Source: Candidatus Bathyarchaeota archaeon
GTDB lineage: Archaea > Thermoproteota > Bathyarchaeia > Bathyarchaeales > Bathycorpusculaceae
Assembly (NCBI GenBank): GCA_963767735.1
Contig: CAVYES010000004.1
Span: forward strand, 512,001 to 576,000
Length of the DNA: 64,000 bases
Direction: 5' to 3'
A model generated the notes under the pieces. The model did not search any database, was not told the origin of the DNA, and worked only from the letters and a program-made list of their open reading frames with translations. Each line of letters starts with the position of its first letter. Positions within the stretch are counted from its first letter, which is position 1. The position numbers and the translations under genes are program-made. Shown one piece after another: positions 14,221 to 24,820 of the stretch.

Positions 14221-16056
14221 ATGAAGAAACTACAAATCATAATAATCGCATTTCTAATTTCGTTATCAATCTGTGCATTCGCAAGTATGCAAGTCAAAGC
14301 TGATCCTTGGTATCAAGTGTCTTTCATTCAGACTGGAATAAGCAGCGAAGCTGGTTCTAACACTGTTCTTACGGTGGGAGAAGAAACGTACGCTTGGAAT
14401 ACTTTGCCCACTAACCTTTGGGTTGATAATGGAACAACATTTACTTGGTCATCTACTGTCGCAGGCAATTCAGGTGAGCAATTTGCTTTGACGAGCGATG
14501 ACGGCGGTCTTACTTCGCCCATAACAGCCTCAGGAACAGAGTCGGCGACTTACACGACTCAGTACCAAGTGACTTTTGATGCTTCAAGCAACGTTAAAGG
14601 GGACAGTTCCGCTACTATCGTGACTGTCAACGGGGTTTCTGAGACCGCGACAAGTTTGCCTTATAGCGTGTGGGTTGACAGCGGCAGTTCAGTTACGTAT
14701 AATTTTGCGAGTCCAGTGGCCAGTTCTTCAGCGACCAATACTCAGTATCGTTGGGGTACCACGAGTGGGCTTGATACGTCTCAGTCCGATATTTTGACTG
14801 TTACGGTTGCTGGCACGGTTACTGGCAACTACGTGACTCAGTATGATTTGCAGTTTGCTCAGTCAGGTCTCGATAGTTCGGCGCAGGGTGATATCGTCTC
14901 CGTCACCGTGGGAGCTAACCCAACGGTCAACCTAGTTCAAAGCCAGTTCCCCTACGACTTTGGCTACGTGGACCAAGGCACGACTATAACGTACACTTTC
15001 ACCTCTACGGTCGGCAGCTCTAACAGCGGTGAGCAGTTTGTTCTTACTACGCCAGCAGCTACACCTGCATCAGGTTTTTCTCTTGATGGAGCGACTACCG
15101 TTACTGGCACCTACCAAACTCAGTTCTTGGTGACTTTTGTCGCGAGTCCTTCTGGTAGCGGGTCAACGTCTCCTGCCGGCACCAATGTTTGGGAGAATGC
15201 CGGTACTCTTTCCTTAACAGCTACACCTAACGCCGGTTACACTTTTTCCACTTGGTCGTCTAACACTGAATCAATCACATTTAACAATGCTAATTCTGCT
15301 TCAGCAACAGCGACGATAGGCGGAACAGGTACCATCACTGCGACTTTCGCTATTAACACCTACACGATTACGGTTACTCAGGGGTCAAATGGTCAGATTT
15401 CTCCTGGTACAAATTCTGTTAATTATGGCGCTACTGCGAGCTACATCATTACGCCTGCCACTAACTATTTCATTGCAAGCATAACTGTTGATGGTTCTTC
15501 AGTAGCGGTTACTTCATCTTTGGGTCAAACAGTTGGCTTCACTAATGTTCAGGCTGATCACTCGATCACTGCAACTTACGCGCCAAACAACTATAGGCTC
15601 ACAGTATACACAAATGGTCAAGGCTCAGTAACTCCTGGCAACGGAACCTACCCATACGACACTGTGGTTAATTTGACAGCGACAAGCGCGGACGGCTGGA
15701 CTTTTGAAGGCTGGAGCAGCGAAGCTACCGGTCTAACAACCACAGTTAACATGAGTGCGGATCAGACGATAACCGCCGATTTTATGCAAAATCTTCCAAC
15801 AACTCCTACGCCAACTCCGACTCCAACATCTACGGTTAGTCCCACACCTGCACCAACCCCAACGCCAACAACCCCGTCTACACCTACAAGCACCCCTACC
15901 GCAACAGCTAAACCGCCTGCAGCAACCCAGACGCTTTTACTTGCGGCAATGGGTCAATTCCTCCCTGTCATAGCGGCTGTAATCATCCTCGGAGCCATAA
16001 TAACAGGGTTGCTCTTTCAGAAAAGAAAACGCCCAAACATAATCGTTCTAAGTTAA
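14221..16056 (+). CDS. Secreted, membrane-anchored cell-surface protein with beta-sandwich/InlB B-like repeats and PT-rich linker
   Basis: Signal peptide, repeated Y-x-TQY-x-VTF units, TPNAGYTFSTWS and GWTFEGWS repeats, Pro/Thr stalk, C-terminal TM plus basic tail. Confidence 0.8.
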   Translation: MKKLQIIIIAFLISLSICAFASMQVKADPWYQVSFIQTGISSEAGSNTVLTVGEETYAWNTLPTNLWVDNGTTFTWSSTVAGNSGEQFALTSDDGGLTSPITASGTESATYTTQYQVTFDASSNVKGDSSATIVTVNGVSETATSLPYSVWVDSGSSVTYNFASPVASSSATNTQYRWGTTSGLDTSQSDILTVTVAGTVTGNYVTQYDLQFAQSGLDSSAQGDIVSVTVGANPTVNLVQSQFPYDFGYVDQGTTITYTFTSTVGSSNSGEQFVLTTPAATPASGFSLDGATTVTGTYQTQFLVTFVASPSGSGSTSPAGTNVWENAGTLSLTATPNAGYTFSTWSSNTESITFNNANSASATATIGGTGTITATFAINTYTITVTQGSNGQISPGTNSVNYGATASYIITPATNYFIASITVDGSSVAVTSSLGQTVGFTNVQADHSITATYAPNNYRLTVYTNGQGSVTPGNGTYPYDTVVNLTATSADGWTFEGWSSEATGLTTTVNMSADQTITADFMQNLPTTPTPTPTPTSTVSPTPAPTPTPTTPSTPTSTPTATAKPPAATQTLLLAAMGQFLPVIAAVIILGAIITGLLFQKRKRPNIIVLS

Positions 16057-16108
16057 AAGAAGGCAAAAAGTCCTTATCTATTTTATTTATTTAGTACTTG
16101 GCTTCTAA

Positions 16109-16241
16109 TTAGGGCTTTTGTGTGTGCGCTACATTCTACCCCCCGGTCTGCTAGATGCTCCTATTAGATGCCTAACATGATTCAACATAGTTCAACATAG
16201 ACGAAAGGTCCCGCACTTTCTATGCAGAACAGTGCTTTTTC
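16109..16241 (-). repeat. Dispersed ~130-bp non-coding repeat, copy 2 (inverted)
   Basis: Reverse complement aligns with 8056..8186. Confidence 0.9.
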
Positions 16242-16512
16242 AACATGGATGCGTGTTTTTTACTTGCTTTTTTATAGGTGTGCTATTGCATAAGAGACGA
16301 TTGTTAACACGCAAAGTGCGATGCATATGGGTGCCCCCGCTTTTCTTGAAAAAATCGTCGCGTAATATTCCGAAATCTCAGTCTTTAGGGCCGATTTGAG
16401 CCCTCTAAAGCAACGTCTTACCCTAAAATCCACTGGACTCTACCTTCTCCAAGCCAATTAGAAAAGTTGCTCCTAATAAATTTCGTTCCGCACCTGTAAT
16501 ATGGCTGAAAGC

Positions 16513-16719
16513 TTAAGATTTCATTTCACGCTTGTTTTGCGTTCGAGCTAACAAAGCACCTGATATGCCTAAAACAAAACCTAGTAACTCTAAACCCGCG
16601 GTGGCACCATCGTATGGGGCTTTTAAAGCAAAAAATTCAATCCCCAAATAGATTAGGACTGCCGAACCAACTGCAAAAAGAAAAAACCCCGCCAATCTTA
16701 AACGTCTCATGATGTGCAC
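16513..16719 (-). CDS. Small two-TM membrane protein
   Basis: Two hydrophobic helices, basic termini, TTTAAG TATA-like box upstream. Confidence 0.6.
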   Translation of the reverse strand: MHIMRRLRLAGFFLFAVGSAVLIYLGIEFFALKAPYDGATAGLELLGFVLGISGALLARTQNKREMKS

Positions 16720-16806
16720 GAACTTTGTATTAGTTTGAACCTAGCTTAAAAAATTTTATTCTCAAGAAAGTAGAGGACTATGAAGCCAACCGTGGGGAAA
16801 GGTCTT

Positions 16807-17127
16807 TCATTCTGTTATGTATTTGACCTGCTTTTGGAGTTTGAACGCTAAGTAAAGGTTTAGAATCACCGCAAGTATGAGTAAAATCAGACCAAAATTA
16901 AAGTCATTAAAAACTAGAATATCATATCCTGCTTTTGTACCGCCAAACTGGATGGATACGGGAAAGTGAGAGTTTACTGCTACCTGATACATCCCATTTA
17001 ACCCTGAATATTCAGCCCAATTCCAAAGCAAGTATAATGCAATAAAAAAAGCGTTAGATAAAACCATTAACTTGAATTCTTTTTTGAGCATTCCTGACCA
17101 ACTTGAAATAATATGTTTATTATCCAA
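16807..17127 (-). CDS. Small two-TM membrane protein
   Basis: Shares N-x6-Y and N-x-[PG]-L-x5-A-x3-N motifs with two repeats in 17592..18395. Confidence 0.7.
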   Translation of the reverse strand: MDNKHIISSWSGMLKKEFKLMVLSNAFFIALYLLWNWAEYSGLNGMYQVAVNSHFPVSIQFGGTKAGYDILVFNDFNFGLILLILAVILNLYLAFKLQKQVKYITE

Positions 17128-17261
17128 TTGGTTACTAACCGCTTTTATGACTTATGATTAGAACGATTGTACTTAAAATTAAAACGTGCTAGACGGTTGG
17201 TACACCCTACTGTGGGAAAAGGTCTTACTTACCAATTACGGTTTTTTCGATAGGGTTGCAA

Positions 17262-17510
17262 CTAGGCATCATTGTCAAAATAATGAAAACCTAACTCCCT
17301 TAATCCAAGAACAATAAGCACAATTCCAAGAATCGCGAATGTTACGGCAATAACAATTGCGAACCATACAGGTACGGTGTTTGCAGGTAGGGTGCTTGCA
17401 TATGTAAAACTACTAAACATTTCGCTATATATTCCGAGACCGATTCCAATAAGCAGTAAAGCGATTCCTATAATTAGTATTATTTCACCAAAGCCTTTGT
17501 TACCCAACAA
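17262..17510 (-). CDS. Small two-TM membrane protein
   Basis: Two hydrophobic helices; AAAAACTTAAA promoter-like element upstream. Confidence 0.6.
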   Translation of the reverse strand: MLGNKGFGEIILIIGIALLLIGIGLGIYSEMFSSFTYASTLPANTVPVWFAIVIAVTFAILGIVLIVLGLRELGFHYFDNDA

Positions 17511-17591
17511 TCAATCCCTGTCGGTTTTAATTAGTAATACCTTCCTACATTCAGGTTTTAAGTTTTTGTATCGCTTGACGTGGGAAAAGCT

Positions 17592-18395
17592 CTACAAATG
17601 GTTGATACTAACTTGCTTAATGACTTTAATCACTATCAACACGTTCAGAATTAATGCTAAAGCAAAAATGAGTAAAGGCATATTGATGTATGTTAAAGTA
17701 TCGCTGTAATTTATTGTGAAGGAACTTACCCATAAACCGTAATGTGAACTTATTGTGTGTCCATTTGTCATGTCATACCATACAAAATCTTCCAGCCCAA
17801 TGTAGGCAACTATCAAAAGAAAGTTAAGCAAAATAGCCATCGGCACATTCAACCAACCACTTCTTGGGTTGATATTGCCCGAGTTTCTGCTTTTTAGCGT
17901 CATTATAGAGATGAAAACGATATTTACAATACATGCTGTTATGAAAAAGCATAGAGGTGTATTTTGGAAAAAGAAAGTACCCGTACCAGCACCCGATAAT
18001 GGGAAATAGTAAAAAGTATTTATCAAAAAGTTGTATGTCGGATAGTATCCACTAAAATTAATTACACCTTCCATGTTAAACCATGCCAAAGCATCAAACG
18101 ATATATAGAGAATAAGCAATAGGATATTGAGAAAAATAGCCCCTTTAAGCCAATCACTTAGTTCGTCACTTTTCAAAGTTTTCTTTATGGTGTTTGTTAT
18201 AGCAGTAAAGCTCAGAAGAATAAGGAAGCTACCTATTGCAATGCAAATTAGACTTCCGAAGTAAAGTAAAAATGCAGAAAATAAGTTATAGGGTTCAGCT
18301 CCGGGCAGTAATGCTTCATGCAAAAATAGACTCCCAAATATAATGATAACTATTCCCGCTGTTGTAAATTGAGCGTTGATTTTCGGCAGTTTCAT
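17592..18395 (-). CDS. Six-TM membrane protein built from three two-TM modules
   Basis: Internal duplication (W..AI.LN.LL...YI..; N.PL..F..A.I.N). Confidence 0.75.
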   Translation of the reverse strand: MKLPKINAQFTTAGIVIIIFGSLFLHEALLPGAEPYNLFSAFLLYFGSLICIAIGSFLILLSFTAITNTIKKTLKSDELSDWLKGAIFLNILLLILYISFDALAWFNMEGVINFSGYYPTYNFLINTFYYFPLSGAGTGTFFFQNTPLCFFITACIVNIVFISIMTLKSRNSGNINPRSGWLNVPMAILLNFLLIVAYIGLEDFVWYDMTNGHTISSHYGLWVSSFTINYSDTLTYINMPLLIFALALILNVLIVIKVIKQVSINHL

Positions 18396-18615
18396 GTTGT
18401 CACTTGTTCTCTTTTTTTAGAATAAAAGGCTATTCGTAAAAGTTCCTTGACTGGCATTAGTCAAACTTTCTTGACTGATAGGGATCAGTATACACTTGCT
18501 TGGGAAGAGGTTAAGTTATTTCTGATAGTTTGACAGGTGGATAAATAAAAAAGTCCAGAATGTGCTTAATCTGTCTCTCAAGCACTTTTTTCAACAGTTT
18601 TTGGAGGTGAAAAAA

Positions 18616-18864
18616 ATGCATAAACAAAGAAATTGCAAAATCTGCAAGTCAGACTTCGCAATAGTTTTACTTTTCATGAACCATTGCAATCACATGCCTT
18701 ATGTAGAACTAATCGAGAGATATGAAAAATACATCCCACGTCTGAATTTATATAATATCTCTACCCATTTCAATAGACACATGGAGCAAAAAGATATCAT
18801 TGAAGATGAAGCTTGCAAAAAACGTTTTGACAAAGAAAAGCAAGAACCGCAAGCTAACGATTAA
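18616..18864 (+). CDS. Small CxxC...HxxxH putative zinc-binding protein
   Basis: GGAGGTGA RBS, CKIC and STHFNRH motifs. Confidence 0.65.
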   Translation: MHKQRNCKICKSDFAIVLLFMNHCNHMPYVELIERYEKYIPRLNLYNISTHFNRHMEQKDIIEDEACKKRFDKEKQEPQAND

Positions 18865-22923: not shown

Positions 22924-23376
22924 TAACGCACTCGACATCTGTTTTCTTTCTTTGTTTTCTCTTATTTTTTGGTTTCTTAAATTAACATAAGGAACTTAAT
23001 CGCCATTACAGCCAACTACACGATTCTTCTTCTGCAAAATCACATTGAAACTTACCCTTTGAGTCAACGGCAAGAAACAATGTCTCCTTTAGGGGAATTC
23101 AGAAAAGCAAAAATTTCCTTGCACTAGTGGTTGTTCCAAAATTAGTTTGCAAAGTACCTGATGCGTCTGGATATGGCCACCGAGAAGAACATAAGATTTT
23201 GAGAGAGCGGAGTTAAGGGAAGGGAGCGTTATCCATCTCTGGGCAAGGTTCATTCCGAGAGTCTTTCCCGTCTGGCTATTAATTTATCTATTTGCTCTTA
23301 GCAAATTATAATCATATCGCTCCCTTTGGACAAGGTGTTGTTAAGAACGCTAATAACGATAAATGAGTGTAGTCCC

Positions 23377-24434
23377 TTGAAAGAAAAACCCAATGTTTTA
23401 ATCGTTGGTGCGGGGGCAATCGGTTTAAGCATAGCAGGCTGGATTTTTCCTAACAATGAAAACTTGACTCTTCTAGCACGAGGCGAAAGCATTGCTGCAC
23501 TTAGAAGATATGGGTTACGGCTTTACAAAATAGGTCAAGAAGCAACAACTGCTCCAATGCCGATAAAAGTAATTGAATCACTAGACGAGATTCCGCCTCC
23601 AGACATTATAATCATTACCGTGAAAAACTATGATCTCGATGGAATAGCACAAACGCTTCGGCAACAGCTTGGAAATTTCCAGCCAATTGTTGCTAGCCTT
23701 CAGAACGGCTTAGAAAACCAACAGATACTACCCAAGTATTTTTCTAGAGCAATATACGGTGTTGTTTGCTACAACGCATGGCGAGACGGTTTCGGGAAAG
23801 CCACATATGTAAAACGAGGATACCTAATTATTGGAACCCCAAACAATGACCTACAACTCGAACTTAAAAGCGTTAAAAACGCTTATATCCCGGATTAGAA
23901 TGCTTTATCACCAATCGTTTACAAGATGCAGTTCACAGCAAGCTAGCAATTAACCTCATAAATGCTTTAATGGCACTAGTAGGATTCCGAAAACGATCAG
24001 TCGAGTCTGAAAAGATTCTTGTGCACATGACTACAAGACTTCTAGGTGAAGGAATCCAAGTGCTTCAAGCAGCCGGGTTTAAAGAGCATAAGCTGGGCAG
24101 CCTGCCCTCTTGGAACGATATCCAAATAGCAGTCAACATGCCAGAATCCCCCACAAATCCACTTCATGACTTCATCGTCAACAGAATCGGACCAACCAGC
24201 ATGACACAAGACGTATTCAGCGAAAAACCAACCACAGAACTAGAATCATTAAGCGGATACATGCTTGAATTAGCCCGCAAAGTAGGTGTTTCAATGCCAA
24301 TTAACCAAGCAATCTATGAGATTGCAAAAGAACAATTCCGTCCCAGCTTTCGACCCATCCCAGAAATTGACCTTTGGGAAATGATAAACAACAAAATTCT
24401 CGACTCAAAAGAAGCTCGCGATAAAAAAATCTAA
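23377..24434 (+). pseudogene. panE: Ketopantoate reductase (PanE/ApbA) family, split by a 1-nt deletion near 23883
   Basis: VGAGAIG, TVKNYD, SLQNGL; shifted frame gives HSKLAINLINAL...TSMTQD...TELESLSG. Confidence 0.8.
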
Positions 24435-24820
24435 AGGGTTAACAGTTTAGCTATATCGTTTTCCTTGTCGTATACCCATCTGTTGGCTTCGGGAGAAAAA
24501 ATAATATATTGCAATTCAACCCTTTTAAAAATACTTTGGTTAATCTGCCTTCTCTGCAAAAAACTATTCAGCTCTTCCTTAGTGGGTGTTTGGATCATGA
24601 CTTATCCTGCGACATCTTCCATACGGTGATTATCGACTCATCGTTCAACCAACAAAGAAATGCATTTTATCTCGGTTCTCTTGCGGCACCTGGGGGTACC
24701 GGGATTCTTTCCGTGAGAATAGAATATTAACGACGAGGGAAGTGTTCCCCACGGGATTTTTATAGAACACGAGTCAACAGTCTTAAATCGTTATTGCTGT
24801 CTATTCTATTCTGTTAACAA

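Follow-up and report, generated by a model that had tools for sequence, protein, structure and literature searches.

A conserved junction module in arrays of horizontally exchanged small membrane-protein genes in Bathyarchaeia

Genes of the array

A stretch of 64,000 nucleotides (nt), called the window below, was analysed from the 3.04-Mb genome of Candidatus Bathyarchaeota archaeon (assembly GCA_963767735.1, contig CAVYES010000004.1, positions 512,001 to 576,000). According to the list of open reading frames (ORFs), four small membrane-protein genes, P0001 to P0004, lie head to tail on its minus strand between 16513 and 18395 (Table 1). A junction module of about 45 nt, here named M, recurs in this array; its distribution and possible role are the subject of this report. 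A first-pass annotation, made from the sequence alone, had described the region as a cassette-like array of single-gene units separated by a conserved motif. Contigs of the source genome are labelled C, genomes of the genus G and loci L, each followed by a number.

Neither Pfam nor NCBIfam gave a name to any of the four array proteins, and the protein atlas offered no usable lead for P0001. Rfam found only two tRNAs in the whole window, the interval 15900-18700 being empty even at E up to 1. No significant match among the four proteins was obtained by BLASTP; the link between P0003 and P0001 comes only from profile comparison, in which the P0003-family profile matched residues 79-174 of P0001 (hhalign probability 92.6%, E 4.5e-7). 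The array genes are distant paralogues. The genes next to the motif are accessory: P0001 is rare, with 8 homologues among 5.8 billion proteins, and its family is present in 3 of 120 genomes of the genus. P0003 is a member of a genus-wide family that carries the promoter-like module P1 upstream. A second genome of the genus has a copy of P0002 with 83% DNA identity, and the motif is missing near that copy; P0004-type genes occur in other genomes downstream of the same M-plus-P1 junction.

The source genome also contains a paralogue of P0001 with 85% DNA identity (C4:337781-338595, corresponding to L003 1501-2331). This paralogue has AAG at the codon aligned with the TAG stop of the window copy, and its ORF therefore extends through the M core (..KTFSKKPD). 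Most P0001 homologues terminate at the same place as the window copy.

The junction module M

The module M consists of a 14-nt core, AGACCTTTYCCCAC, and a downstream extension; the consensus of the aligned instances (74 unique copies) is T-AGACCTTTTCCCAC-rgtt-GGGTGTAyCCaCCCTCT. The four minus-strand strings quoted in the first-pass annotation were all found at their positions in the window (Table 1). The cores of copies 1, 2 and 3 have at most one mismatch to AGACCTTTYCCCAC. Copy 2 is the best match of the module profile in the source genome (E 1.1e-8), and copy 1 was also recovered by the profile (E 4.1e-6). Copy 3 is represented by the core only; at its position the P0001 orthologues and the paralogue retain only ACCTTTTC or nothing. 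Copy 4 is degenerate, and it fits the longer module of the other junctions, containing CCTCTTCCCAAG, GTGTATAC, CCCTA and GTCAAGAAAGTTTGAC in this order. A fifth site, at 24745, had been cited as similar; it shares with the motif only TTCCCCACGG, the string TTYCCCAC occurs 204 times in the genome, and the site was missed by the module profile, so that it is read as a chance occurrence. The motif itself is genuine: three good copies and the degenerate fourth are situated at junctions of genes, and only the fifth falls away.

The rest of each spacer had been described as unrelated, which proved wrong. Copies 1, 2 and 4 conform to the longer module with a GGGTGTAyCC-type extension; moreover, a diverged P1 follows copy 1 and the second promoter-like module, P2, follows copy 4, and therefore these spacers are not otherwise unrelated. 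Copy 2 is separated from the P0002 stop by 36 nt, which correspond to a decayed copy of the coding tail ..HRKTA.. (here ..YRKT..). A single extra A has put this remnant out of frame. It resembles CATCGAAAAACCGCTAA.., which codes for ..HRKTA.. ahead of M in many relatives as well as at C4:339650 and C6:124629. Comparable orphan tails were found ahead of M at other loci.

A coding or recoding role of M was also considered and rejected, as in-frame stops are present in the candidate frame of several copies. No PylS above the cut-off was found in the source genome.

Promoter modules P1 and P2

Judged from sequence, every unit of the array has one of two conserved promoter-like modules upstream, P1 or P2, which include a TATA-like box. 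The earlier description of single-gene units, each with its own promoter-like module and with the motif at the unit boundaries, was thus borne out. P1 is AAAATCTTTTAAGCAAGGTCAAAAC and includes a conserved 20-mer, CTTTTAAGCAAGGTCAAAAC. With at most one mismatch, the 20-mer gave 58 matches in 34 of the 120 genomes, compared with 0 for the reversed control, and it is nearly invariant among species whose core loci are just 73-91% identical. It always lies upstream of genes for small two-helix membrane proteins. Further P1 copies in the source genome are at C8:265808-265827 and C4:319697-319716, and others are in loci L078-L107. As for P2, 54 bp of it are repeated in the source genome at C4:79317, C4:161439, C8:252995, C6:109597 and C6:112928; P2 is also common to the P0001 paralogue, the G115 copy and the JGI copy.

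The distance from the end of M to P1, or to the palindrome of P2, is 25-40 nt. Among 31 unique, independently chosen P1 sites, M with at most three mismatches was found at 8, indel variants picked by eye at 5-7 more, and none at about 16; in addition, one P0001 orthologue has P2 straight after the stop, with M absent. M is not obligatory for the promoters.

P2 contains a second GTCAAG repeat, and GTCAA half-sites are present in P1 too, which suggests that one regulator might serve the whole P1/P2 set. The P1-driven two-helix proteins (loci L079-L107) have two shapes, hairpins of about 70 amino acids (aa) and P0003-like units of about 100 aa; most share the C-terminal tail ..(K)ETKQTPS, and family libraries hold no name for them.

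Candidate regulator genes were observed at several arrays. Proteins of 280-330 aa with an ArsR-type winged helix-turn-helix domain, a membrane helix and an outside domain are encoded at L051 14852-15694, L077 4271-5149, L072 2190-3152 and L063 7147-8142, and in three of these four loci the gene is divergent from the array head. Between the regulator gene and the head, about 25 nt upstream of M, these loci have the perfect palindrome GTCCAG-N4-CTGGAC; this palindrome rather than M looks like the operator. Only a half-site of it is present in the window (Table 1). Another pair of genes, inside three arrays, encodes a Cys-rich small helix-turn-helix protein (..KLAH.IF.KLIPE.KT) and a membrane protein starting M..R.RGWLP.E (L003 3-1267, corresponding to C4:336283-337547; L051 12122-13674; L053 5974-7403). 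A partnership of the Cys-rich family with M was considered, but the family is present in 73 of the 120 genomes as against 34 with M, and therefore there is no specific link.

Table 1. Positions of the array genes, modules and neighbouring features in the window
Feature	Position	Strand	Description
P0001	17592-18395	minus	267 aa membrane protein; N-terminal two-helix hairpin and two P0003-like units; accessory
P0002	17262-17510	minus	82 aa, two-helix hairpin; ORF
P0003	16807-17127	minus	106 aa, two-helix membrane protein; likelier start ATG at 17091
P0004	16513-16719	minus	65-68 aa, two-helix hairpin; likelier start ATG at 16710
Quoted string 1	16790-16809	minus	TGA-AAGACCTTTCCCCACGG; after ORF 16807-17127
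Quoted string 2	17210-17227	minus	TAA-GACCTTTTCCCACAG; 36 nt past TAG of ORF 17262-17510
Quoted string 3	17579-17594	minus	TAG-AGCTTTTCCCACG; after ORF 17592-18395
Quoted string 4	18499-18513	minus	TAA-CCTCTTCCCAAG; no ORF ahead
M copy 1	16770-16809	minus	core AGACCTTTCCCCAC at 16792-16805, 5 nt past P0003 TGA; then GGTTGGCTTCATAGTCC
M copy 2	17195-17225	minus	core AGACCTTTTCCCAC at 17212-17225; then AGTAGGGTGTACCAACC
M copy 3	17580-17593	minus	core only, AGAGCTTTTCCCAC; overlaps P0001 TAG; downstream extension absent
M copy 4	18479-18512	minus	degenerate, AACCTCTTCCCAAGCAAGTGTATACTGATCCCTA; array head; no upstream gene
Orphan coding-tail remnant	17226-17252	minus	TATCGAAAAAACCGTAA..; between P0002 stop and M copy 2
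P1 (window copy)	16733-16760	minus	AATAAAATTTTTTAAGCTAGGTTCAAAC; upstream of P0004; diverged copy of the genus-conserved 20-mer
P2 of P0001	18420-18475	minus	distal palindrome GTCAAGAAAGTTTGAC (18460-18475), proximal AGTCAAGGAACTTTTACGAATAGCCTTTTATTC (18420-18452)
Operator-like half-site	18553-18560		TTCTGGAC; half of GTCCAG-N4-CTGGAC
Dispersed repeat	16109-16241	minus	about 110 nt; between the array and the 611-aa surface protein gene
Ketopantoate reductase, first ORF	23326-23898		ApbA N-domain
Ketopantoate reductase, second ORF	23970-24434		ApbA_C

Distribution of M

The short string CTTTYCCCAC has 31 occurrences in the source genome, both strands counted, and three of them share a single strand inside 800 bp. 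With one mismatch allowed, the count for the whole window was 15 against 8.2 expected, a value reached in 1 of 100 shuffles and not significant alone. The search of the 120 genus genomes with AGACCTTTYCCCAY was more informative, as 52 exact matches in 34 genomes were obtained, versus 9 for the reversed control; several of the matches form same-strand clusters with gene-sized spacing. Each genus genome has 0-5 exact copies, and 5-6 copies were counted in the source genome with the module profile. In a collection of one genome each from 185,579 species, the long form of the motif was found in 14 stretches, nearly all titled Bathyarchaeota or uncultured archaeon. When the four window junctions were compared with the source genome by blastn-short, only short chance words were returned. 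Literature searches on Bathyarchaeia genomic islands and surface proteins and on integrons and attC in Bathyarchaeota gave nothing on the present array system, and searches with the motif strings gave unrelated animal and plant papers only.

Dispersed repeats of the miniature inverted-repeat transposable element (MITE) or repetitive extragenic palindromic (REP) type are present in many copies, bear terminal inverted repeats or target-site duplications, and are not linked to the ends of genes. Such an identity of M was rejected; there are only 0-5 exact copies per genome, these are always co-oriented with genes and linked to stops, and no terminal repeats are visible.

M at gene 3' ends

The position of M relative to genes was examined at 79 sites with at most one mismatch, drawn from the collected motif-bearing loci. 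A same-strand ORF of at least 60 codons ends no more than 40 nt upstream at 49 of the 79 sites, compared with 9% of random positions. At 25 of these 49 gene-linked sites the stop overlaps M. The stops are TAG in 33 cases, TAA in 12 and TGA in 4; whereas TAG accounts for 21% genome-wide. M thus often furnishes the TAG stop of an upstream gene for a membrane or surface protein.

The upstream genes are of several unrelated kinds. They include beta-helix or repeat surface proteins with a membrane anchor and the C-terminal sequence ..RRHRKTANLSK; small two-helix proteins with the C-terminus ..ETKQTPS, whose genes have a conserved spacer of 14 nt behind them; a family of 148 aa with the C-terminus ..VKHFKPPIK; and P0001 and P0003. 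A T4 run is kept in all four P0001 copies, lying right after the stop in three of them and in the run-on frame of the in-genome paralogue.

Exchange of cassettes between genomes

Similar arrays, in which one junction after another carries M, were found in other genomes. The 148-aa gene is flanked by M on both sides in several genomes, and its neighbours vary. Comparison of G125 and G128 revealed a 566-nt M-to-M block with 96.1% identity between unrelated flanks; the block starts 1 nt from the left M and stops 14 nt past the right M. At these junctions the downstream unit accounts for the sequence to the right of the core and the upstream gene for that to its left, which places the point of exchange within the core or at its edge.

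The identity of this cassette was compared with that of two core yardsticks, the 3-hydroxy-3-methylglutaryl-coenzyme A (HMG-CoA) reductase and RNA polymerase B loci; HtrA was dropped as a yardstick because it is multi-copy. For G125 and G128, the cassette identity of 96.1% compares with 78.1% at the HMG-CoA reductase locus and 86.9% at the RNA polymerase B locus. For G118 and G125 the values are 75.5% for the cassette, 87.6% and 91.1%, respectively; for G117 and G118 they are 93.0% and 86.0% for the two cassette halves, 73.3% and 79.3%. The cassettes are thus discordant with the core loci in three genome pairs, and they therefore move between species.

Inter-genome matches of at least 200 nt and at least 80% identity were also examined for their ends. 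Within 20 such matches, 18 of 76 internal ends lie no more than 20 nt from M, where 1.3 were expected and the maximum in 1000 random placements was 7. The P0001 paralogue and orthologues share promoter and gene, and their homology reaches no further than P2 on the left side, while on the right it stops within M; the breakpoints at P2 fit recombination at any shared module. Gene order was accordingly found to be unfixed among relatives, with homology breakpoints at the motif and exchange of units across species, in line with what the first-pass annotation had proposed.

The copies of the 148-aa cassette gene differ in one further respect: about 1.15 kb of additional DNA interrupts the one in G117 (L071 2778-3039 and 4192-4492), and the one in G118 is contiguous.

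A viral connection was also observed. IMG/VR contains one occurrence each of M and P1. The viral contig with P1 (L114 17-2520) carries a terminase large subunit gene (phrog_979, E 4.9e-80), P1, a gene for a 76-aa two-helix protein, a gene for a 197-aa secreted protein and an M-like site; in G092, one chromosomal array is divergent from a terminase gene. The PHROGs scan of 8 window ORFs near the array gave no match. The 76-aa protein of L114 ends in ..KTKHTPS.

Proposed explanation

With moderate confidence, the array is interpreted as a set of moron-like expression cassettes, in which M would be a family-specific 3' boundary element that doubles as a recombination patch. Each cassette would comprise a promoter module (P1 or P2), one ORF and usually M. 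M would belong to the 3' end of the upstream gene, overlapping or closely trailing its stop and providing a short U-tract, and would terminate or insulate transcripts between the closely packed same-strand units. A 3'-end element specific to the cassette family is the most economical function for M, and a 3' boundary element is also its most likely identity. Otherwise unrelated neighbours have no sequence in common except M and the promoter modules, which would therefore serve as the crossover points. Recombination at these modules would insert, delete or swap whole cassettes, which could be shuffled in this way within genomes, across species of the genus and via their viruses. The anatomy of the cassettes, their distribution over the genus, the linkage of M to 3' ends, the breakpoints at M and the movement across species are shown by the data; a role in termination or insulation is inferred, and so is recombination through general or short-homology machinery rather than through a dedicated enzyme. 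Besides these results, the compact junctions, the P1 and P2 sites without M, the breakpoints at P2, the viral connection, the T4 run kept in the P0001 copies and the lack of a tyrosine recombinase near the arrays speak for the explanation.

Several observations weigh against this explanation. The T-run in M is only T3-T4 (T3 in copy 1), and CCCAC, the best-conserved part of the module, is not enriched after stops genome-wide. A metatranscriptome contig from peat (197 nt, depth 4.3), which corresponds to 16741-16937, extends from P0003 across copy 1 and ends only past the T6 of the next promoter. It hints weakly at transcription of M and at a failure of copy 1, with its broken T-run, to halt transcription; the contig may even be DNA-derived. 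The public RNA data consist of one run and one contig, so the uncovered parts of the array are uninformative. Intact copies of M are also present at array heads, next to divergent regulator genes and without an upstream same-strand gene, and a pure 3'-end role is insufficient because of these copies. Moreover, the crossover offers only about 15 nt of identical core (about 28 nt if the extension is included), a short length for ordinary homologous recombination. The counts themselves are subject to ascertainment bias since the loci were picked by motif, and some of the 20 compared pairs are near-duplicates, such as one metagenome-assembled genome (MAG) versus G125.

Alternative explanations

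It is possible, though unlikely, that a dedicated site-specific system recombines at M. Its recombinase, acting in trans from a virus or from another place in the genome, would excise promoter-bearing cassettes and insert them at the 14-nt core. Such sites might resemble integron attC/attI in function with unrelated sequence, and would belong to an undescribed archaeal and viral system for ready-to-express envelope genes, a possibility to be held just as tentatively. The exchange point inside the identical core of about 15 nt, the presence of M on both sides of mobile units and at the head of arrays lacking an upstream gene, and the discordance of cassette and core-genome identity in three genome pairs are all in its favour. 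Short overlapping inverted repeats after the core (CCCA-N4-TGGG and TGGGT-N2-4-ACCCA) and the half-modules after the P0001 copies could be added to these; and integrase-less attC clusters are common in archaeal MAGs (PMC9668308). The option was kept alive because the crossover core is very short, M stands at array heads and such archaeal clusters are known.

The search for an enzyme argues against a dedicated system. Matches to PF00589 were present in all five genomes searched (16 in G000), but no tyrosine recombinase was found beside the arrays, within about 30 kb of any of them. The nearest match is about 55 kb from the array in G000; in G125 the distance is about 30 kb, and no match lies on the array contigs of G112 and G001. 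The earlier remark that no recombinase is visible in the window holds for the 39 ORFs scanned up to 48 kb, the 19 ORFs beyond 48.4 kb lying outside the scan; a DDE transposase is located 15 kb from the array. Folding gave no support either. For 25 of the 74 unique instances, folded as 90-nt stretches, the z-scores ranged from -2.1 to +2.0 and were mostly near 0, and a stable RNA or single-strand structure of M was not supported by folding energy for these instances. Many copies have the GTTRRRY-like stretch GTTGGGT after the core, but others have GCTTGGG, AGATGGG, GACTAGG or GGCAAGG, and thus the GTT is not conserved. In addition, breakpoints occur at P2 as well, and exact M copies number only 0-5 per genome.

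A role of M as an operator or upstream activating site, through which a regulator would co-control all array promoters, is quite improbable. The fairly constant spacing between M and P1, or between M and the palindrome of P2, is consistent with it, as are the partly palindromic extension of M and the intact M between the divergent ArsR-type gene and the first array promoter in three of four loci. However, about half of the P1 sites lack M, P2 is also found next to a stop without it, and the separate GTCCAG-N4-CTGGAC palindrome is the likelier operator at array heads. The best-conserved part of M is asymmetric, linked to stops and always co-oriented with genes; the copy at C4:339650 is in a convergent arrangement with no same-strand gene after it; and the regulator homologues of the source genome are not near any M.

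It is very doubtful that M is functionless, being merely the leftover 3' flank of a duplicated ancestral gene spread by tandem duplication. The distant paralogy of the array genes and the coding tail ..HRKTA.. shared ahead of three source-genome copies could be explained in this way. M is also facultative, since it is present at 2 and absent at 3 of the five source-genome genes that combine an anchor with an HRKT/KRKT tail (picked by eye from 14 regex matches). However, the core is 13-14/14 identical behind unrelated tails (..HRKTANLSK, ..ETKQTPS with its 14-nt spacer, ..VKHFKPPIK, P0001 and P0003), and it is kept between species with core loci 73-91% identical while the flanks diverge. The genus-wide excess of M over the reversed control and the homology blocks that end at M likewise speak against it.

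The simpler proposal of the first-pass annotation, a shared terminator in the sense of the ordinary transcription terminator of the organism, is close to untenable and was rejected as a genome-wide signal: M does follow stops and contain a T-run, and CCTTTT is 2.25-fold enriched after stops, but after 1364 long ORFs T5-6 runs are enriched 2.8-2.95 fold against 0.71 for TCCCAC and 0.68 for TTCCCA, only a few of the 31 CTTTYCCCAC sites follow long ORFs, and M has just 5-6 copies in the source genome and 0-5 in others of the genus.

Comparison with known systems

The proposed cassettes resemble phage morons, which are independent transcription units that have a promoter and a terminator of their own and are horizontally spread among phage genomes (PMC3594210). 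As in that description, the present cassettes are single-gene units with a promoter-like module and a 3' element, they lie between unrelated neighbours and are horizontally exchanged, and some adjoin viral terminase genes; the likeness extends to promoter and terminator activity only as predicted here from sequence. Unlike morons, the cassettes form long chromosomal arrays with one family-wide junction and two family-wide promoters, and no viral genes were found among the 8 ORFs near the window array that were scanned against PHROGs.

Tandem envelope genes have also been described in the lpl cluster of Staphylococcus aureus, where paralogues lie in a genomic island and a highly conserved nucleotide patch is the recombination site and defines the units of evolution (Tsuru and Kobayashi 2008, PMC2568036). 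Tandem paralogues (P0001 has a P0003-like unit) and breakpoints at a conserved patch, M, are likewise found here. In lpl the patch is inside the ORF, so that half-genes move together with the intergenic region (PMC2568036); whereas the present patch is at the gene junction, and therefore whole genes with their promoters move. The present patch also differs in being shared by unrelated gene families, and the exchange crosses species.

The short U-tract just past the upstream stop resembles the archaeal U-tract terminators on which aCPSF1/FttA acts (PMC8716108). M differs from these in having T3-T4 only, and its conserved CCCAC (0.68-0.71 after stops) and partly palindromic extension stand outside the genome-wide signal; its 5-6 copies are also unlike a general terminator of this type.

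Integrons have an integrase, which is a tyrosine recombinase, beside the array or at least somewhere in the genome, and an attI site. Their attC is an imperfect palindrome of 57-141 nt (R''-L''...L'-R') with a single-strand fold and a conserved GTTRRRY, and most of their cassettes lack a promoter and depend on a shared one for expression. The array had been called integron-like but without an attC signature. The likeness holds for single-gene units bounded by a motif; it fails in that no tyrosine recombinase adjoins any array examined, no stable attC-like fold was seen in the instances folded and the cassettes bear their own promoter-like modules. M is conserved as a 14-nt sequence and not as a fold, and GTTGGGT is frequent after its core yet not conserved. 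The traits shared with integrons and integrase-less attC clusters are single-gene arrays, a conserved site after the ORF that often overlaps the stop, units that are reshuffled and transferred, and arrays that may stand without an adjacent integrase (PMC9668308).

Implications and further observations

Bathyarchaeia are abundant and uncultured, and to our knowledge next to nothing is known about the regulation or variation of their cell surface. The present analysis defines three conserved signals by their sequence, the junction module M at gene 3' ends and the promoter modules P1 and P2. At these signals, complete genes for small membrane and surface proteins, ready to be expressed, are moved across species, sometimes beside viral packaging genes. 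This looks like a modular diversification of the cell envelope in archaea of soil and peat, probably under viral pressure. P1, P2 and M could be natural promoter and boundary parts for future Bathyarchaeia genetics; and if a dedicated enzyme did act at the junction, the arrays would represent a new kind of gene-capture system.

Two minor features of the window were also observed. The dispersed repeat next to the array (Table 1) has 17 copies in the genome, with 74-85% identity, on contigs C2 and C4-C8; it has no Rfam match and contains the conserved blocks ..ATGTTGAAAGTGCGGGAC..TATGTTGAATCATGTTTGGCGTCTAATAGGA..CATCTAGTAGACCGGGGGTAG... Ketopantoate reductase is encoded by two adjacent ORFs, the first for the ApbA N-domain and the second for ApbA_C, and this might be either a split or a broken gene.

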